DNA from: Patescibacteria group bacterium
GTDB lineage: Bacteria; Patescibacteriota; Patescibacteriia; Patescibacteriales; JBAZCA01
Reading direction: 5' to 3'
Length of the DNA: 64,000 nt
Assembly: GCA_041671125.1 (NCBI GenBank)
Contig: JBAZCA010000005.1
Coordinates: 85,864-149,863 of the forward strand
The notes beneath the pieces are model-generated. The model did no database searches. It was not told the DNA's origin and saw only the letters and a list, made by a program, of their open reading frames with translations. How positions within the stretch are numbered: position 1 is the first letter of the stretch; the number at the start of each line of letters is the position of its first letter. The translations under genes were made by a program, and so were the position numbers. Positions 3,101 to 22,547 of the stretch are shown piece by piece.

Positions 3101-6100
3101 TTGTTGTTAAAGATAATATAAATAGCAATTATTTAAATTTTACCAAAGATCCGGAACCCTATTCGGGGCCGCTTATTGAATCTTTTGACCCGCAAACCGG
3201 AACTTCCACCCAATATGTTACGATCCGGGGCCGCGGTTTTGGCAACGCGCGGGGAGAGAGTCAGGTATTTTTCGGGAACGAGAGCGGTATAGAAGCCGGT
3301 TATGATTTTCCGAAAGTCTGCGCCGACAGTGTCTGGACCGATAATCAGGTAATTATAAAAGTCCCGGCAGGAATCGCCGACGGATTATATTTATTAACTA
3401 TGAAAATCGGGACGGTGGTTATTAATACTTCGGAACTAGCGATGCCAAAATTCATGGTTGACAGCTCAGAACCGCTTAAACCGAGCCTTTGCAAAATTCA
3501 GCCGGTGATGGGGCTAATTGGTCAGCCGGTGAGCTTTTGGGGCGAATACTTTGGTGCGAAAGATGCTAATAGTAAAATAAAATTTTATTTGAATAAATAC
3601 CAGCCGGGATCTTCAGGCTATTGGGGAAAGGATAATTCTACGACAAGCGGAATAATTCCGGATATGGCGACAACGACGGTTCCGGCCAGAGCCATAAGCG
3701 GGCCGGTTAAAATGATAAAAAACAAGCCGGAATTAGAAGGAAACGGATTAAATTTTAAAGTCGGGGAATGTTCCAAATCCGAAGAGTGCGGAGGCGGGGC
3801 AGTCTGTTGCCCTTCCGGTTCCCAACATCAGGGTCGTTGTATGTTCGGCGATAATGTTGAAGAAGCCTGCTATGACGTTTTTAAATCCTGCGTTTATGAA
3901 TGGGATTTTTCAACCGGAGCAAAAATCGGCGACCCTTGCGATAAGGATAAAGATAAAGCAAAATGTCAGCCGGATCAGGACGTTTGCGGTGATGAGCTGG
4001 TTTGTTATGTGGACGAAGAAAATCCGGATCTTAACTGCACCTGTCAAATGCCCTGTGATTTGAAACCTGGCGATGAGCCCGGAAATGAGGGTTGCCAGAA
4101 AGATGATGACAAGTGCCAAAGCGAACTTGGTGAAGATTATATTTGTGATCCGGAGAGCGATTGCACCTGCCAGCCGACTTATACCGAGTCATGCTCCGGC
4201 TACGATATAAACCAATGTGTCTATAATTATTGTTCCGGCCCAAAAAAGCCGGGAGAGTGCAGCGTTAATACAGAGCCGAAAGAAGGAAATAAATGCAACA
4301 GCAAATATTGCAAAGACCTTTGCGGAGGCAAAGCCTGCGAGTATAACGAAACACTGGACAAATGCGCGGAAAATACTTTAATTTGTGGATTGTCCCACGC
4401 GGAAACCCGTAATATTGGAGGCAAGGACGTTCAGCTCGATGAATATTGTGCTTTGTATAACAAAAAATACCGTTGGCATGTTAAAAATTTTGAAAACTGC
4501 AATCTACTGGGCGGTTCCTGGCGGAATGCCGGCGGAAGCGTTTGTGCCGATGTCGGTTCTGAATGTGGTGGAGTTTGCGAAGCCGGACTGAATTGCGTCG
4601 GAGAAAATGGCAAAGACAATAACGGCGACGGGGCGCTTGACGCATCGTGGATAGGAGTTTGCGGAGTTGACCGGGCGGTTTGCGGTTTGGATTATGAATG
4701 CAAGAATGGCACTTGCAAGCAGAAAATCGCCGGCATTTGCGAATGTTGCTGCCAAAAAAGCGAAAATAAATATGATTTGGACGGAATTTTTAAATATAAT
4801 CCCCAGTGTTGTGCGCCGCTAAAATGCGGAAGCGAATGCGGGGAAAGTGTCGGCAAACCGGAAAAAGTCTGTAAAAAAACTGATAGCGTACTTACAAAGA
4901 AAAAATGCGATACTGAAGCCGACTGCGACACCGGTTCCGGAGAAACCTGTGTGGAAAATTTACCTACAGCCGATTTCGGGCTTTGCTCGGGTTGCCGGGT
5001 TGACAGCGACAATAACGGCGGAATATCGGAAGAGGAGCAGGAAAAATCCGATCAGGCCTGCAACTGCGCCGGTTCAGCCGGAAAATACTGCGACGTTAAC
5101 ACTGACGCCAATTCTGACGGAAAACTGGACAACCAAGACGGAGTCTGCCGCGAATGCGGAGAGCTAAGCTATTATCCGGCTAAGTGCACCGAGCATGACG
5201 CTTCTTGTTGCGTTGACGGTCAAGAAGGTAGCGTCTGTCGGGGAATAACATCCGGCGGGAGCACGGTAAAAGAAGACAATTTAGCCTATTGCGCTTACTA
5301 TAAGTGCGGCACCTCGGAAGACCAATACCAATGCGACAGCGAAAATCCGAGCCCCGGTTTAATTAATCCGGACAGCTATCCTTACGATAAACCTAATTGC
5401 GACGGAGCTTGCGGATCTCCGCCCGGCGGATCATGTTATAATGAAAAACAGGAACTTTGCTCGCTTAATTGCTGGATGTCGGAAGCGTATAAGTGTCTTG
5501 GGTATGGCGATTATGGGGAAAACGATACGCCGGGAATTTGCTGGGATTGGAATAAAAATCCGGAAACCGAAGTGCCCAAATGCGATGCCGGAGACGGATC
5601 GTGCCTTTGTTGCTGCGACCCGGGTAAAACCGGAATTGACCCGACTGATCCCGCGACTTATGACGCCTGTCAGGCGCTGGATAATAAAAAATTAAAATGT
5701 CAGCCAGATAAAGAACCTTGCACCTCGGATAAAAGAGGTCTTTGTTGCGGCTGTGAGGCTGATGTGGACTGCGTTATTCCCAGTGAACAGCCCGATCTTG
5801 TCGGTTGCGGATTTGACGCCTGTTGCCGGGCCCGGCCGGATGTAGAAAGGGATAGCGAAATACCAAAAAATGGCCAGACTGACGCCTGCCGGAACGGGCA
5901 AATCAGCGCGGTATTCAGTGAAAGAATGGATATTCAAAGTTTCCCGAGCAATATTATCGTGGCCGGAGAATATAGCGGGAAATGTCCGGACGGAACGGTT
6001 TATGTCGCTATTAACGGCGAAGAACCGGGATTTTTTAAGCGGATAATCGCGAAAATTTCAGGGCTGGTAAAAAAAATAATCCATTTCCGGTCTAAAGAAG

Positions 6101-11356: not shown

Positions 11357-12622
11357 ATGAGAGAAAACATCATCGCCGGACTGGATATCGGATCCTCAAA
11401 GATACGCCTCGTCATCGGCCAGAAAAGCTTAAACCGCGAGGAGCGGGGATTTCAGGTAATCGGCGCCGTTGAAACGCCGACCGAAGGGCTTTCCCGCGGA
11501 ATAGTGAACAGCATAGAAGACGCGACATCTTCAATTTCATCGTGCCTGGAAAAAGCCGAGCGGCTTACCGGCGCGCCGGTAAAAAGCGTCTGGGTGGGAA
11601 TTAATTTTCCCAACGTTAAATGCGAAAAAAGCCGGGGAGTGGTCGCGGTCGGAAAATCGGATGGCGAAATAACGCCGGACGACGTGGAGCGGGCTTTAGA
11701 AGCGGCTCGGGCTTTGTCAGTTCCGCCGAATTACGAAATCCTCCATGTTATTCCGGTAAAATTCACGGTTGACAACCAGGAAGAGATAAAAGACCCGATC
11801 GGCATGACCGGAGTCCGGCTTGAAGTTGAAACCCTTATAATCCAGGGACTTTCATCCCAGATAAAAAACCTTACCAAAGCCATTTACCGGACCGGCCTGG
11901 AAATTGAAGACCTGGTTCTATCGCCTTTAGCCGCCGCCGAAGCAGTTATCAGCGCCAAGCAGAAAGAACTCGGAGCGGCGCTTATAAATATCGGTTCTTC
12001 TACTACCAGCCTCGCCGTTTTTGAAGAGGGCGAGCTTTTGCATACCGCGGTTTTACCGGTCGGCTCTGAACATATTACCGCCGATATCGCCATCGGGCTC
12101 CGCTGTCCCATCAACCTGGCCGAAAAGATAAAGATTGAATACGGCAGCGCCAAACCGGACCAGTTCTCAAAAAAAGACGAAATTGATTTAAGCCTCATGG
12201 CCGAAGAAGGGGAGAGCGCTGAAGACAGCCAGGTTTCCCAAAAATACATTTCCGAAATAATTGAGGCCCGGGTTGAGGAAATTTTTGAAAAGATCGACGC
12301 TGAATTTAAAAAGATTGACCGCTCGGGAATGCTCCCGGCCGGAGTTTTTCTAGTCGGCGGCGGCGCCAAGCTTGCCCATATAACCGAGATTGCCAAGAAA
12401 AAATTAAGGCTTCCGGCCTGCCTCGGCGCCAACAAGGCGGCGCGGACCGTTATAGATAAAGTTGACGACCCAACCTACCTGACGGCACTCGGCCTTTCTA
12501 TCTGGGGCAACCAGGCTTTAGACCATGAAAGCGTCCGAAAAGTTGACTGGATTCGGGGAACCGCGGCCGTTAACAAGTCGGTGGACAGAATTAAGAAGTG
12601 GATATCGTCGCTCATGCCGTAA
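11357..12622 (+). CDS. ftsA: Cell division protein FtsA
   Basis: Actin-fold N-terminus IIAGLDIGSSKIRLVIGQ, GGGAKL near the C-terminus, and a position immediately upstream of ftsZ. Confidence 0.9.
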   Translation: MRENIIAGLDIGSSKIRLVIGQKSLNREERGFQVIGAVETPTEGLSRGIVNSIEDATSSISSCLEKAERLTGAPVKSVWVGINFPNVKCEKSRGVVAVGKSDGEITPDDVERALEAARALSVPPNYEILHVIPVKFTVDNQEEIKDPIGMTGVRLEVETLIIQGLSSQIKNLTKAIYRTGLEIEDLVLSPLAAAEAVISAKQKELGAALINIGSSTTSLAVFEEGELLHTAVLPVGSEHITADIAIGLRCPINLAEKIKIEYGSAKPDQFSKKDEIDLSLMAEEGESAEDSQVSQKYISEIIEARVEEIFEKIDAEFKKIDRSGMLPAGVFLVGGGAKLAHITEIAKKKLRLPACLGANKAARTVIDKVDDPTYLTALGLSIWGNQALDHESVRKVDWIRGTAAVNKSVDRIKKWISSLMP

Positions 12623-12630
12623 TTATAGCC

Positions 12631-12720
12631 GAAAAGTCTTTAAGTCCGAAAGTCTGGAAAAAAGCGCAAAATTATTTTTATTCCGGGCTTTAGACTTTTT
12701 TAACTAGGGACTTTAGGACT
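12631..12720. repeat. Spacer palindrome built from AAGTC / GACTT units
   Basis: The left arm is aaagtctttaagtccgaaagtctgg. The right arm is gggctttagacttttttaactagggactttaggactt. Unit polarity is inverted between the arms. Confidence 0.6.
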
Positions 12721-18620: not shown

Positions 18621-18648
18621 TTGACGGGTTTAAGGGGAATGCTATAAT
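18621..18648 (+). promoter_or_regulatory. Sigma70-type promoter of the nrdR-nrdD-nrdG operon
   Basis: -35 TTGACG (18621-18626), a 16-nt spacer, and an extended -10 TGcTATAAT (18640-18648). Confidence 0.6.
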
Positions 18649-18663
18649 TAAATTAACGACAAA

Positions 18664-18712
18664 ATACTATATATTGTGCCACAGATAAAAAGTGAGACCC
18701 AATATATTGATT
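18664..18712 (+). promoter_or_regulatory. Tandem NrdR boxes
   Basis: ATACTATATATTGTGC (18664-18679) matches 14 of 16 positions of the acaCwAtATaTwGtgt consensus. ACCCAATATATTGATT (18697-18712) has a perfect CwAtATaTwG core. The cores are 33 nt apart. Confidence 0.65.
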
Positions 18713-18815
18713 AGACTAACTTCTGACAGGATTATTGGATTTAGTCAAATAACGAACTTTGTCCGCCCGAAGAAGGCGGACAAGGAGGGAAAAACTTTAT
18801 TGGATTAAGGTAATT

Positions 18816-19292
18816 ATGAAATGCCCCATCTGCTATTACGAGGATACTAAAGTGGTGGATTCAAGGGTGGCTTCGGACGGATTCTCCATAAGAAGACGGA
18901 GAGAATGCTTAAAATGCGGCTTCCGGTTTTCTACCTATGAAGAGCTGGAAATCCTTGAGCTTACAATTATTAAGCGGGACAGCCGGAAAGAAGCCTATCA
19001 GCGGGAAAAATTGGAGAGAGGCCTTAAAAAAGCTCTGGAAAAACGCCCCATAACCAAGGAAAATTTTAAGAAGCTGGTTAACCTTATAGAACGGGATTTG
19101 CAAAAACTCCGGAAAAGCGAAATCACCTCCAACCAGATCGGCCTCTTCATCATGAAGCACCTGAAAAAAATGGATAAAGTCGCTTATATCCGTTTTGCGA
19201 GTGTTTATCAGTCCTTTAAGGACGTGGAAGAATTTTCGGAAGAGCTGGATAAGTTGCTCGCAGGAAAAGACCGAAAAAAAATTAAAAATTAA
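18816..19292 (+). CDS. nrdR: Transcriptional repressor NrdR
   Basis: Zn-ribbon MKCPICYYEDTKVVDSR...CLKCGFRF followed by an ATP-cone. The start is taken at MKCPIC rather than the upstream TTG of the ORF track. Confidence 0.9.
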   Translation: MKCPICYYEDTKVVDSRVASDGFSIRRRRECLKCGFRFSTYEELEILELTIIKRDSRKEAYQREKLERGLKKALEKRPITKENFKKLVNLIERDLQKLRKSEITSNQIGLFIMKHLKKMDKVAYIRFASVYQSFKDVEEFSEELDKLLAGKDRKKIKN

Positions 19293-19367
19293 AAATTATC
19301 CGCCAGAGTATCTTGCGCCAGTCAGAGGCTGGTCCGCCTCTGGCGGAAAAATTAATACATATTCCCC

Positions 19368-21518
19368 ATGCAACCCCTTAAAGAAATAAAAAACAGCATA
19401 ACCCAGATTTTAAAGCGCTCGGGAGAAATCGCGCCTTTTTTGCCGGAAAAAATTGTTGAAGCGATTTTTAAGGCGACCGAAGCCGTTGGCCAGCCTGATC
19501 GCCAGCTCGCGGAAAAATTAACCAACGAAGTAATCGCCGCGGTAGCCGCAAAGTTTCACGAAAGATCCATTCCGGCGGTTGAGGAAATCCAGGACATGGT
19601 GGAAGAAGTCCTTATCGCCAACCGGCAGATTAAAGCCGCCAAATCCTACATCCTTTACCGGGATCAGCGAGCCCGCTTAAGGGATATGCGGTCTTTAATT
19701 GATTACGCTTCGCTCGTTGAATCTTACATTAATAATAGCGACTGGCGGGTCAAGGAAAACTCCAACATGAGTTACAGCCTCCAGGGTTTAAATAACCACA
19801 TCGCTTCGGATATTTCTTCTAACTACTGGCTTAATAAAATTTACACGGCTAATATCCGTGAAGCCCATAAAGACGGCGATTTGCATTTGCATGATTTACA
19901 GATCATCGCCCCTTACTGCGCCGGCTGGGATTTAAAGGATTTGTTGATGCGCGGTTTTGGCGGAGTTTCGGGGAAAATTGAATCCGGGCCGGCCAAACAT
20001 TTCCGCACGGCGCTCGGGCAGGTGATAAATTTTTTCTATACCGTGCAGGGCGAGGTGGCCGGAGCCATGGCCTTTTCCAACTTTGATACCTATCTTGCGC
20101 CTTTTATTCGCTACGACAGCATGACCAAAAAGGAAGTCCGTCAGAGCCTGCAGGAATTTTTATTCAACATTAATGTCCCGACCCGGGTCGGATTCCAGAC
20201 GCCTTTTACCAACATTACTTTGGATTTGGTAGTAAGCGGAGCCTTAAAGGACGAGCATGTAGTTATCGGCGGAAAACACCAGCTTGAAACCTACAAGGAA
20301 TTCCAGAAAGAAATGGACATGTTTAACGAGGTTTTTGCCGAGCTGATGATGGAAGGCGACGCCAAAGGGCGGGTCTTTACCTTTCCGATCCCGACCTACA
20401 ATATTACCCGGGATTTTGACTGGGATTCGCCAGTCTCCATGAAAGTTTTTGACATGACCGCCAAATACGGCATCCCTTATTTTTCCAACTTCGTCAATTC
20501 AGACATGAGCCCGGATGACGCCCGCTCAATGTGTTGCCGTTTGCGGCTTGATAATCGGGAATTAAGAAAGCGCGGCGGCGGACTTTTCGGCGCCAACCCT
20601 TTAACCGGCTCCATCGGCGTCGTAACGATAAACCTTCCCCGGATCGGCTACCTCGCTAAAACCGAAGAGGAATTCTTTGACCGGTTGTCAGGCCTCATGC
20701 AAATCGCCCGCGAGAGCCTTGAAGTGAAAAGAAAAGTACTTGAAGATTTAACCGACGGCGGGCTCTATCCTTACGCCCGGCATTATTTAGATAATATCAA
20801 AGCGCGCTTCGGCGGCTATTGGAACAACCATTTTTCAACCATCGGCATTATCGGCATGAACGAGGCGCTTCTTAATTTCGCTCCGGTCAGCGCCAATATT
20901 TCCTCGCCAGCCGGCCGGGCTTTTGCCGAAAAAGTTCTTACTTTTATTCGGGAGAAAATGATGGATTACCAGAATTCAACCAACCATTTATATAATCTTG
21001 AAGCCACGCCGGCGGAAGGAACAACCAGGCGCCTCGCTAATCTTGATAAAAAGAAATACGCGGATATTATCGTGGCCAACAACGAAGAAGTAATAACCAG
21101 GGAAGCCGCCCCTTTCTATTCTAATTCCACCCAGCTTCCGGTCGGTTTTACCGATGATATGTTTATGGCCTTGGATTTGCAGGACGGTTTGCAAACTCGC
21201 TATACCGGCGGAACCGTATTTCATGGTTTTATCGGCGAAGCCCTGCCTTCGGCCGAATCGGTAAAAAACCTGGTCCGGAAAATCGCCTACAACTACAAAC
21301 TGCCTTACTTTACTGTTACTCCGACTTTTTCTATCTGCCCGAAACACGGCTATCTGGCCGGCGAGCACCACTACTGCCCAAAATGCGACGAGGAAAACGG
21401 AACCGGCGGAATACCGGCGGCGGGGAAGAAGGCCGAAAAAAAGCCTGAAGCGCCGGATAAACCGGACAGGGCGATAGAGAGTAATTTAGAAAGGGATTTA
21501 ATAACATTGTTAGCTTAG
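19368..21518 (+). CDS. nrdD: Anaerobic ribonucleoside-triphosphate reductase (class III), truncated before the glycyl-radical motif
   Basis: N-terminal ATP-cone, a class III core and the Zn-site region FSICPKHGYLAGEHHYCPKC. The ORF then continues into a low-complexity tail (TGGIPAAGKKAEKKPEAPDKPD...) and stops without any RVxGY motif. Confidence 0.9.
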   Translation: MQPLKEIKNSITQILKRSGEIAPFLPEKIVEAIFKATEAVGQPDRQLAEKLTNEVIAAVAAKFHERSIPAVEEIQDMVEEVLIANRQIKAAKSYILYRDQRARLRDMRSLIDYASLVESYINNSDWRVKENSNMSYSLQGLNNHIASDISSNYWLNKIYTANIREAHKDGDLHLHDLQIIAPYCAGWDLKDLLMRGFGGVSGKIESGPAKHFRTALGQVINFFYTVQGEVAGAMAFSNFDTYLAPFIRYDSMTKKEVRQSLQEFLFNINVPTRVGFQTPFTNITLDLVVSGALKDEHVVIGGKHQLETYKEFQKEMDMFNEVFAELMMEGDAKGRVFTFPIPTYNITRDFDWDSPVSMKVFDMTAKYGIPYFSNFVNSDMSPDDARSMCCRLRLDNRELRKRGGGLFGANPLTGSIGVVTINLPRIGYLAKTEEEFFDRLSGLMQIARESLEVKRKVLEDLTDGGLYPYARHYLDNIKARFGGYWNNHFSTIGIIGMNEALLNFAPVSANISSPAGRAFAEKVLTFIREKMMDYQNSTNHLYNLEATPAEGTTRRLANLDKKKYADIIVANNEEVITREAAPFYSNSTQLPVGFTDDMFMALDLQDGLQTRYTGGTVFHGFIGEALPSAESVKNLVRKIAYNYKLPYFTVTPTFSICPKHGYLAGEHHYCPKCDEENGTGGIPAAGKKAEKKPEAPDKPDRAIESNLERDLITLLA

Positions 21519-21520
21519 AA

Positions 21521-21595
21521 TAAGTCATCAAGTCAAAATAGTCATAAAGTCGGACGGTTTGTTATTCTGACTTCGGACTTTTGGACTTTAGACTA
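21521..21595. repeat. AAGTC/GACTT-unit palindrome between the two nrdD pieces
   Basis: The left arm is aagtcatcaagtcaaaatagtcataaagtcgga. The right arm is tctgacttcggacttttggactttagact. Confidence 0.65.
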
Positions 21596-21603
21596 AAAAA
21601 TAT

Positions 21604-21750
21604 ATGAGTCCAGTTGAAACAAAAAGACAGCCATGCGAAGTTTACAGCCGGGTTTGCGGTTATCTCCGGCCGGTCAGCCAGTGGAACGATTCAAAGCAGG
21701 CGGAATTCGCCAGCCGGAAAATGTATAAAACCGAAAATAGCGAGAAATAA
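21604..21750 (+). CDS. Stand-alone glycyl-radical peptide (the detached C-terminal module of NrdD), 48 aa
   Basis: The translation is MSPVETKRQPCEVYSRVCGYLRPVSQWNDSKQAEFASRKMYKTENSEK. It contains the class III RNR glycyl-radical signature (CEVYSRVCGYLRPV..WN). It is in a different frame from nrdD. Its stop overlaps the nrdG start (TAATG). It is absent from the ORF track because it is under 60 aa. Confidence 0.75.
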   Translation: MSPVETKRQPCEVYSRVCGYLRPVSQWNDSKQAEFASRKMYKTENSEK

Positions 21751-22547
21751 TGAAAATCGGCGGTTTGCAAAAATTCAGCCTTCTTGATTATCCGGGAAAA
21801 ATTTCCGCCATCATATTCACGAAAGGTTGCAATTTCCGCTGTCATTATTGCTATAATCCCATGCTTGTTGAGCCTAAAGGCGGACGTGTCCTGACCCGAC
21901 GGCAAGGCAAGGTAGTATATTCTTCGCCTGATCCGGCTGAACCGGAGGAACTTTCTTCCGATAACGCCGGAAAGGGCGAAGGGCAGGAAGGTCATCCCCT
22001 AAAAGAGGGTGATCTTTTTGTTTTTTTAAAAAAGCGGATCGGGAAGCTGGACGCCGTAGTTATAACCGGAGGCGAGCCGACCATCCAACCGGATTTGCCC
22101 GAGTTCCTCGCGAAAATCAAGGAGCTTGGATTCCTTATAAAACTGGACACGAACGGATCCAGTCCGGAAATGCTTAAAAAAATATTGGACAAAAACTTAG
22201 CGGATTATATTGCCATGGATTTAAAAACTTCTCTGCCGGCTTATGAAAAAGCCTGCGGAGTTAAGTTTGACTTGGAAAAACTGAAAAAAAGTATTAAAAT
22301 GATTAAAGAAAGTTCTTTGCCGCGCGAGTGGCGGACGACCTTAGTTCCGGGAATCGTGGAGGCGGATGATATTTCCGCCTTGGGGAAATTAATCAAGGGC
22401 GAGTCCGTCTGGTATTTGCAGGGGTTTAAAAGCCAGACCCCTTTGGTTAATAATGAATTTCAGGGGAAAAACGGGTACAGCGCGATTGACATGGAAAAGA
22501 TGCGGAAGATTGCCTTGGGATATGTAAAAAAGTGTGAGATAAGATGA
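21750..22547 (+). CDS. nrdG: Anaerobic RNR activating enzyme (radical SAM)
   Basis: CxxxCxxC motif GCNFRCHYCYNP, plus VVITGGEPT. It lies directly downstream of nrdD. Confidence 0.85.
   Translation: MKIGGLQKFSLLDYPGKISAIIFTKGCNFRCHYCYNPMLVEPKGGRVLTRRQGKVVYSSPDPAEPEELSSDNAGKGEGQEGHPLKEGDLFVFLKKRIGKLDAVVITGGEPTIQPDLPEFLAKIKELGFLIKLDTNGSSPEMLKKILDKNLADYIAMDLKTSLPAYEKACGVKFDLEKLKKSIKMIKESSLPREWRTTLVPGIVEADDISALGKLIKGESVWYLQGFKSQTPLVNNEFQGKNGYSAIDMEKMRKIALGYVKKCEIR

Follow-up and report, generated by a model that had tools for sequence, protein, structure and literature searches.

In NrdD, the class III ribonucleotide reductase (RNR) that is made as one piece in phage T4, Escherichia coli, Thermotoga maritima and Prevotella copri, four Zn ligands in two pairs lie upstream of the glycine loop; in the T4 enzyme these are C543, C546, C561 and C564, and the radical glycine is G580. 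The glycyl-radical domain of the one-piece enzyme is highly mobile and has to move out of the catalytic barrel to be activated; in P. copri NrdD it consists of the Zn site, followed by a buried glycine loop and a tail on the surface (PMC11226230). Here we analyse an nrdD locus in a window of 64,000 nucleotides (nt), which is the whole stretch of contig JBAZCA010000005.1 under study and comes from a metagenome-assembled genome (MAG) of the Patescibacteria. The locus shares with the one-piece systems the protein family, the fold, the ATP-cone, the barrel, the Zn ribbon, the RVxGY signature and an adjacent activase, NrdG. It differs from them in where the chain is interrupted: the break falls within the glycyl-radical domain itself, after the Zn ribbon and ahead of the glycine loop, rather than where the barrel meets the domain. 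A protein of its own, 48 amino acids (aa) long, carries the loop, and the large chain ends in an added C-terminal extension of 5–77 aa across the split forms. On comparative sequence evidence, it is very probable that an old and stably inherited gene fission has given rise to a class III RNR of two polypeptides.

To our knowledge, no glycyl-radical enzyme characterised so far has its radical glycine on a chain other than that of the barrel, and the only loop known to act in trans is that of GrcA (YfiD). GrcA supplies a glycine loop to pyruvate formate-lyase (PFL) in trans, and what it has in common with the present case is a small stand-alone glycine-loop protein acting with a large catalytic barrel (PMC8683613). 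The original prediction for this locus, a model's reading of the sequence, had named GrcA as the precedent. The comparison stands for the mechanism, but not for the parts involved: GrcA is a PFL-family domain of ~127 aa that replaces the oxygen-cleaved C-terminus of a PFL having a loop of its own, whereas the peptide described here belongs to the NrdD family and is much smaller. Because its partner has no loop that could be replaced, the peptide would be an obligate subunit and not a repair part. Of such arrangements, a 2026 review of glycyl-radical enzymes mentions the spare-part protein alone.

Among RNRs, NrdJa/NrdJb of Pseudomonas aeruginosa and other Proteobacteria is encoded in two adjacent open reading frames (ORFs), both pieces of which are required and form a 1:1 complex; a paper of 2015 described it as the sole split RNR then known outside viruses (PMC4520616). 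NrdJa/NrdJb is a B12-dependent class II enzyme, and NrdJb (229 aa) carries a Zn finger and redox cysteines, not the radical site; it has only the principle of C-terminal fission in common with the class III case considered here. Phage RNR genes are split by introns, inteins and homing endonuclease genes, as with I-TevII of T4, nrdA-a/nrdA-b of Aeromonas phage Aeh1 and Lactococcus phage 949, and on the phage side, too, genes in pieces yield a working enzyme (PMC3653736). These interruptions, however, are mobile elements at other positions in single phages, whereas the split in nrdD is fixed throughout a large clade of cellular organisms and shows no mobile element, intron signature or intein. 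No description of a split NrdD was found in the full-text literature, exact phrases included, with coverage of subscription journals being partial. The arrangement, which stands in the databases as unremarked "fragment" annotations, is thus new as far as established.

Two reading frames for one enzyme

The core of the locus comprises the following features.

19368..21518, plus strand: class III RNR large subunit, 716 aa, stop codon TAG, assigned by Pfam NRDD, by NCBIfam NF006126 and by matches of its AlphaFold2 (AF2) model in the PDB
21336..21386, plus strand: Zn-ribbon ligand positions C657-x2-H660-x9-C670-x2-C673 (ICPKHGYLAGEHHYCPKC), invariant in 120 of 120 homologues
21387..21482, plus strand: variable linker, aa 674–705, rich in E, K, P, G and A and beginning DEENG; 32–54 aa long in close relatives, with the frame kept
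21483..21518, plus strand: C-terminal motif NLERDLITLLA followed by the TAG stop, a predicted amphipathic helix, delimited by comparison of homologues and codons
21519..21603, plus strand: intergenic spacer, mostly an imperfect hairpin (four AGTC then four GACT, 21520–21598), folding at -21.7 kcal/mol with z = -1.7
21604..21750, plus strand: putative small subunit, a 48-aa glycyl-radical peptide, MSPVETKRQPCEVYSRVCGYLRPVSQWN..., assigned by Pfam NRDD 531–562 of 562

The two ORFs, which lie in different frames, together tile both family models. Residues 130–677 of the large ORF correspond to NRDD 1–531 of 562 (E = 2e-177), and residues 8–41 of the small ORF to the remaining positions from 531 (E = 8e-11); in the same way, NF006126 is matched at 3–650 of 684 by the large ORF (1047 bits against a cutoff of 548) and at 649–683 by the small one. 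All coordinates of the original prediction, including the 85 nt between the large-ORF stop and the small-ORF ATG and the change of frame, were reproduced, and the RVxGY signature is on the small ORF, as it had stated. Neither the 716-aa ORF nor any of its 120 closest homologues contains the motif. On the small ORF, RVCGY forms residues 16–20, and the codon of the radical glycine, G19, is at 21658–21660. The extra DNA between the conserved parts, which had been put at roughly 240 nt, is real, but measures ~226 nt (21399–21624).

The large ORF contains an ATP-cone (aa 13–102), the catalytic barrel and the Zn ribbon, and no glycyl-radical loop. Its AF2 model has a mean predicted local distance difference test (pLDDT) score of 75.8, with a well-modelled core, and the best PDB matches of the model are all class III RNRs (9d3x, 8p2c, 4u3e, 4coi and 1h79; E from 1e-28 to 1e-19). 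C389 and C390, in the sequence SMCCRLRLD, are invariant across the 120 homologues, and from knowledge of the family we take them to form the active-site radical cysteine loop. Together with the C-x2-H...C-x2-C ribbon, this sequence resembles the T. maritima-type subgroup. By homology and predicted fold, all the features tested identify the enzyme as a class III RNR, save for the position of the glycine motif, which is off the catalytic chain.

The small ORF belongs to the same family and to no other: its only Pfam match at E ≤ 0.1 is NRDD and its only NCBIfam matches are NrdD equivalogs, while NCBIfam holds no model for the small peptide itself. Residues E12, V13, S15, R16, G19, Y20, P23, N28, K31, E34 and R38 are invariant in its homologues. 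Among close relatives the ATG is conserved, and the first 11 codons differ by 24 synonymous and 4 non-synonymous changes. An identical protein (P0001) is present in the protein collection under the NCBI name Patescibacteria protein; in the contig index, the exact sequence of the small ORF had no match.

One part of the original assignment is doubtful, namely that the small peptide supplies the fourth cysteine of the Zn site. All four canonical positions are on the large ORF, and its ribbon can be aligned with the Zn region of NrdD from T. maritima; His, not Cys, stands at the second position, as it does in unsplit relatives. The cysteine in question, Cys11, is conserved in 113 of the 116 small ORFs and in almost every unsplit relative belonging to this subgroup, and its position is taken by Asp in T. 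maritima and by Ala in a clade with overlapping ORFs that is described below. Because the canonical positions are complete without it, Cys11 is an additional conserved cysteine, not demonstrably a missing ligand, and a role for it as an inter-chain Zn ligand is doubtful.

Distribution and origin of the split

The original prediction had proposed a survey of related genomes for the same split, and the split proved to be widespread. The 120 closest homologues of the large ORF (70–100% identity, 683–734 aa) come from MAGs of Patescibacteria, Falkowbacteria and Parcubacteria from many samples, and every one of them ends without the glycine motif. A search with the small ORF returned at least 124 clusters, each a stand-alone protein of 39–84 aa. 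When a profile of the small peptide was run against 1.84 billion cluster representatives, 5126 proteins matched, and 148 of the 150 best were 48–115 aa in length, some of which short matches may be gene calls ending at contig ends. Among 80 species-representative genomes encoding a relative of the small peptide, 31–36 have the split form (large nrdD, small ORF and nrdG), 29 have a one-piece nrdD and 14 have other arrangements. The split forms, of which 37 loci were compared, occur in Patescibacteria, in DPANN and other archaea (Micrarchaeota, Woesearchaeota and a Thermoplasmatota MAG) and in a clade labelled Thermotogae/Acetothermia.

All split forms have the sequence CP(K/I)CDEE(I/L) after the Zn ribbon, whereas in the unsplit relatives CPKC continues through TIEQP into CEVYSR. 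Since the split forms share this signature and the unsplit forms are without it, the comparison favours a single ancient fission, after which the split gene was inherited vertically, with some transfer between Patescibacteria and DPANN. In a neighbour-joining tree, the split Patescibacteria clade that includes the window is monophyletic, has diverged internally to ~60% identity and is sister to an unsplit Patescibacteria clade. The deep nodes of this tree are unreliable, and we do not claim a number of fission events.

The same survey bears on the most serious rival explanation, in which the small ORF would be a GrcA-like spare part for an intact NrdD encoded elsewhere, and the 716-aa ORF a decaying or non-catalytic copy. 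Only 64 kb of the genome were covered, and in other lineages there are indeed stand-alone NrdD-type glycine-loop proteins that are unlinked to nrdD (in Desulfobacterales MAGs, such as L039, and in L066). Such a copy is hard to reconcile, however, with a large ORF that is strongly conserved and whose ATP-cone, catalytic residues and Zn ribbon are invariant in 120 homologues, all of them likewise lacking the glycine motif. Furthermore, every split locus in which the large ORF, the small ORF and nrdG are linked has them next to one another in this order, and no other nrdD-like sequence was found in the 64-kb window. We consider this explanation very unlikely, although it is the one among the rivals to which we would give the most weight.

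The small ORF is easily overlooked in annotation, as is seen in another assembly of the closest relative (L082, 3306–3464), where the 48-aa ORF is uncalled, while the identical DNA is called in L081 (4666–4812). With large subunits that look truncated and a small ORF that is easily missed, the RNR of Patescibacteria and DPANN could be scored as broken in metabolic reconstructions.

Evidence for separate translation

That the enzyme is naturally in two pieces, with a translated small ORF, was the reading favoured in the original prediction, and it gains strong support from the clade-wide split, the conserved stop and start, the unconstrained spacer and the Shine–Dalgarno sites. We compared the window with four close relatives, whose NrdD proteins are 91, 85, 83 and 81% identical to that of the window. 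Their spacers, of 11, 101, 80 and 102 nt as against 85 nt in the window, cannot be aligned with one another, while the codons up to the large-ORF stop and those from the small-ORF ATG onwards are conserved in five relatives with many synonymous changes. Over the 37 split loci, every one of the three frame offsets is represented and the spacer measures between -29 and +355 nt; in L050 it is 0 nt, with TAA directly followed by ATG. Of the 37 small ORFs, 33 begin with ATG, mostly placed 4–13 codons before the invariant CEVYSR, and in one-piece relatives the residue corresponding to this start is not Met.

Lineages that use Shine–Dalgarno sites have such a site before the small ORF, for example GGAGGTGA in L063, of the type of the archaeal loci, and GAGGTG in L052. 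The genome of the window rarely uses such sites (1 of 34 long ORFs has one); its starts are instead preceded by AT-rich sequence (74% as against 56% overall), and so is that of the small ORF, whose 15 upstream nt are 87% AT. In the overlapping clade (L018, L022, L023 and L030, labelled Thermotogae/Acetothermia), the small ORF is ~65 aa long (LNYKEDxDGNL...) and overlaps the last ~9 codons of the large ORF. AAGGAGG, 8 nt and TTG are conserved at these sites:

L018, about 3420–3465: overlap with conserved AAGGAGG, 8 nt, TTG
L022, about 3420–3465: the same arrangement
L023: the same arrangement
L030, about 2040–2085: the same arrangement

The 8 nt between AAGGAGG and TTG differ among the loci, which speaks for initiation at this site and against slippage. 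These four loci, in which the ORFs overlap and there is no ATG, had been candidates for frameshifting; with the conserved initiation signals and no slippery site this was rejected, and they are also counted as split. Taken together, separate translation of the two ORFs is strongly supported by the pattern of conservation.

The tail of the large ORF, 43 residues from the Zn ribbon to the TAG, had been described as low in complexity. This is fair for the variable linker, which the AF2 model treats as disordered (pLDDT <50), but not for the last 11 residues, NLERDLITLLA, which are conserved and under selection. The start of the tail directly after the Zn ribbon is also nearly fixed, being DEEIGY in 50 of 120 homologues and DEENG here, with an invariant Asp. 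The terminal motif stands at the extreme C-terminus in 57 of the 120 homologues, and a related hydrophobic ending is found in a short-tail class; the long-tail ending can be written …(L/I)(E/D)R(D/N)(L/I)IxA(L/I/M)A and the short-tail ending …EKEVEQILI. In the five close relatives the linker varies, yet the frame is always open through the terminal motif, whose codons differ by 35 synonymous and 24 non-synonymous changes, the latter at 3 positions only. Because the frame is kept across a variable linker and the codon differences are mostly synonymous, we take it from these comparisons that the tail is translated and its end is under selection at the protein level. Archaeal split forms (L063, L050) have tails of only 5–10 residues, without the terminal motif; the terminal helix is thus a clade-specific addition, not a requirement of the split.

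The spacer of the window contains the AAGTC/GACTT palindrome that had been noted as belonging to a family seen in other spacers, and this is borne out. It is a repeated intergenic element, made of three or four AAGTC units and then an equal number of GACTT units, that forms a long imperfect hairpin. Copies in the window are at 12631–12720 and 21520–21609, with a partial copy, the AGTC half only, at 62551–62600. Two of the copies lie directly after a stop codon; that at 12631–12720 follows an ORF ending at 12622 and folds with z = -2.6. Since the hairpin is absent from L081, the relative with 91% identity, where the spacer is the one of 11 nt, the palindrome is a recent insertion specific to this genome and unrelated to the origin of the split. 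No promoter or terminator was found in the spacer. By folding back on itself, the hairpin would presumably hold the stop codon of the large ORF and the start of the small one near each other on the RNA.

The original prediction had also considered that the insertion might be removed at the RNA level, so that a group I, group II or other intron would be spliced out and a continuous NrdD produced. Phage nrdD genes are known to be interrupted in this way, T4 nrdD by a group I intron for example (PMC3653736), and the spacer in the window is able to fold. However, there is no Rfam match in 21200–21900 at E up to 10, group I introns included, nor any in 20 related loci at the gathering score. A spacer of 11 nt in the closest relative, and of anything from an overlap of 29 nt to 355 nt elsewhere, with no conservation of its sequence, does not resemble an intron either. 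The sequence to be spliced out would include the tail, with its frame and terminal motif conserved at the protein level, and the small ORF retains its ATG, as well as Shine–Dalgarno sites in the lineages using them. Splicing is therefore a very improbable explanation.

Ribosomal frameshifting, or bypassing of the kind found in T4 gene 60, would instead join the ORFs into a single chain with a long insert. Bypassing in gene 60 involves nascent-peptide and stem-loop signals, to which …LERDLIxxLA before the stop and the hairpin after it bear a superficial likeness. The hairpin, however, is absent in the closest relative, and the archaeal forms, with tails of only 5–10 aa, have no such motif; in the window sequence itself, matching take-off and landing codons are not seen. 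Across the split loci, neither the frame relation, of which all three are represented, nor the spacer (-29 to +355 nt) is fixed, and the overlapping clade conserves a Shine–Dalgarno site 8 nt from TTG, not a slippery sequence. We give recoding as little credence as splicing. An assembly or sequencing error, or a recent pseudogene in one genome, might be suspected in view of the metagenomic source and the repeat-like insertion in the spacer, but has a negligible chance of explaining an architecture that recurs in dozens of assemblies made independently from a variety of samples and lineages, with sequences diverged to ~60% identity.

A split intein was also tried as a candidate and rejected. 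In a split intein, an N-intein of ~100 aa follows the N-extein, and a C-intein of ~35 aa ends in HN before Cys, Ser or Thr. Here the tail is 5–77 aa long and starts with Asp, the leader of the small ORF is mostly 4–13 aa, and there are no Pfam intein domains.

Several points weigh against a natural two-polypeptide enzyme. In the window, an 85-nt hairpin lies between the ORFs and the small ORF has no Shine–Dalgarno site before it, which bears on how efficiently the peptide would be made here. The tail helix, residues 707–715, is predicted by AF2 at a pLDDT of about 40 and is not confidently docked. In an AF2 model of a fusion of the large and small ORFs of the window, residues 681–764 (tail and peptide) all have pLDDT <50, but the run had no alignment depth for the peptide and is uninformative rather than contrary evidence. 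A second, intact nrdD could lie outside the 64-kb window. Finally, the existence and assembly of the two chains, the glycyl radical and the reduction of nucleoside triphosphates are all matters that we infer from sequence.

A possible mechanism for the two-polypeptide enzyme

If the enzyme does consist of two polypeptides, the 48-aa peptide would be the rest of the glycyl-radical domain, that is, the buried RVxGY loop and the C-terminal tail that runs over the surface in one-piece enzymes. It would bind the large subunit non-covalently, with the glycine loop inserted in the barrel beside C389/C390. NrdG would then abstract a hydrogen from G19 of the peptide to form the radical, and catalysis would proceed as in one-piece NrdD. 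The terminal helix of the large subunit could act as a latch, or as a site at which the peptide or NrdG docks. Such a mechanism in trans is plausible because the glycyl-radical domain of NrdD is mobile, GrcA acts in trans, and the activase of PFL accepts short peptides containing the glycine motif.

Oxygen cleaves glycyl-radical proteins at the glycine, so that the loss to a split enzyme would be limited to a 5-kDa peptide that costs little to make. This saving may be the advantage of the fission, or the fission may have been neutral. A more far-reaching version, which we put forward tentatively and think rather less likely than not to hold, is that the peptide is an exchangeable "radical cartridge". 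It would be activated by NrdG while free or loosely tethered, plug into the large subunit, where it would be held by the Zn-ribbon region and the C-terminal latch helix, and be swapped after oxygen damage or loss of the radical. This would then be the normal class III RNR in much of Patescibacteria and DPANN, and the unlinked loop proteins of Desulfobacterales and Elusimicrobia would represent a related trans system. In that event, the glycyl radical would be a replaceable, separately synthesised subunit, similar to a cofactor.

Should the two-polypeptide enzyme be real, the covalent tether would be dispensable in glycyl-radical enzymes. The peptide would be the smallest natural carrier of a glycyl radical and, at 5 kDa, handy for studies of activase recognition and of loop entry into the barrel. 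The arrangement suggests a cheap way of surviving exposure to oxygen. It would also be the second split cellular RNR, far more widespread than NrdJa/NrdJb.

Genes and signals around the locus

The large nrdD and the small ORF belong to a string of four consecutive genes, nrdR, large nrdD, small ORF and nrdG, all on the plus strand. The features flanking the two ORFs are:

18621..18648, plus strand: promoter-like site, TTGACG, 16 nt and TATAAT with an upstream TG, 11 of 12 matches in a consensus scan; its function is presumed
18663..18712, plus strand: two AT-rich palindromes, ATACTATATATTGTG and CCCAATATATTGATT, with ~32 bp between them, just downstream of the promoter-like site, found by reading the sequence
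18816..19292, plus strand: nrdR, transcriptional repressor of RNR genes (Pfam Zn_ribbon_NrdR, E = 1.5e-20; ATP-cone, E = 4e-18)
21750..22547, plus strand: nrdG, radical-SAM activase (TIGR02495 NrdG2, 198.8 bits against a cutoff of 131; Pfam Radical_SAM, E = 4e-22)

The promoter-like site precedes the whole string. The palindromes downstream of it look like NrdR boxes and suggest that NrdR may regulate all the genes in the string, nrdR itself included. The likely start of nrdR is the ATG at 18816, within a mechanical ORF of 18759–19292; the product called in relatives is 146–162 aa. At the other end, the TAA of the small ORF (21748–21750) shares one base with the ATG of nrdG, forming the TAATG overlap that the original prediction had pointed out.

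Two further hairpins were seen near nrdR. An inverted repeat (CCGCCAGAG ... CTCTGGCGG) with a loop of 29 nt lies at 19300–19346, between the stop of nrdR and the start of nrdD, and a second, GC-rich hairpin (TTGTCCGCC...GGCGGACAA) is located at 18759–18783 in the nrdR leader. NrdG has an insertion of ~50 aa, rich in P, E, G and S, at aa ~38–88 (21860–22015), directly after its CxxxCxxC cluster motif; the TIGR02495 match is in two stretches flanking it. NrdG is 245–257 aa long in relatives, which indicates that the length of this insertion is variable.

Glycine-loop proteins and nrdD inserts in other genomes

Stand-alone proteins of ~115 aa, with a CxxC...CxxC ribbon of their own and an NrdD-type CEVYSRVVGY loop, are encoded in MAGs of Desulfobacterales and other deltaproteobacteria:

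L039, 3279–3635: ~115-aa loop protein
L011, L013, L026, L027, L031, L041, L048, L051, L055–L057, L073 and L078: further proteins of this kind

No nrdD or nrdG was found within 3.5 kb of these genes, and their neighbours are unrelated. These proteins may be a GrcA-like spare part for NrdD. An Elusimicrobiaceae MAG (L066, 3456–3626) has an NrdD-type glycine-loop ORF of 56 aa, again with unrelated neighbours, which we take to be a DsbA-like protein, an MBL-fold hydrolase and an HxlR-type regulator, and with no nrdD or nrdG nearby. This ORF could be an unlinked small subunit or a spare part.

Alignment of the window NrdD by tblastn also revealed in-frame inserts of ~1 kb in the nrdD genes of L019, L025, L033, L050, L052, L058, L067, L068 and L080. 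The inserts are located after query residues ~277/278, ~389 and ~620–644, and some of these genes are also split at the glycine loop. The inserts look like inteins.

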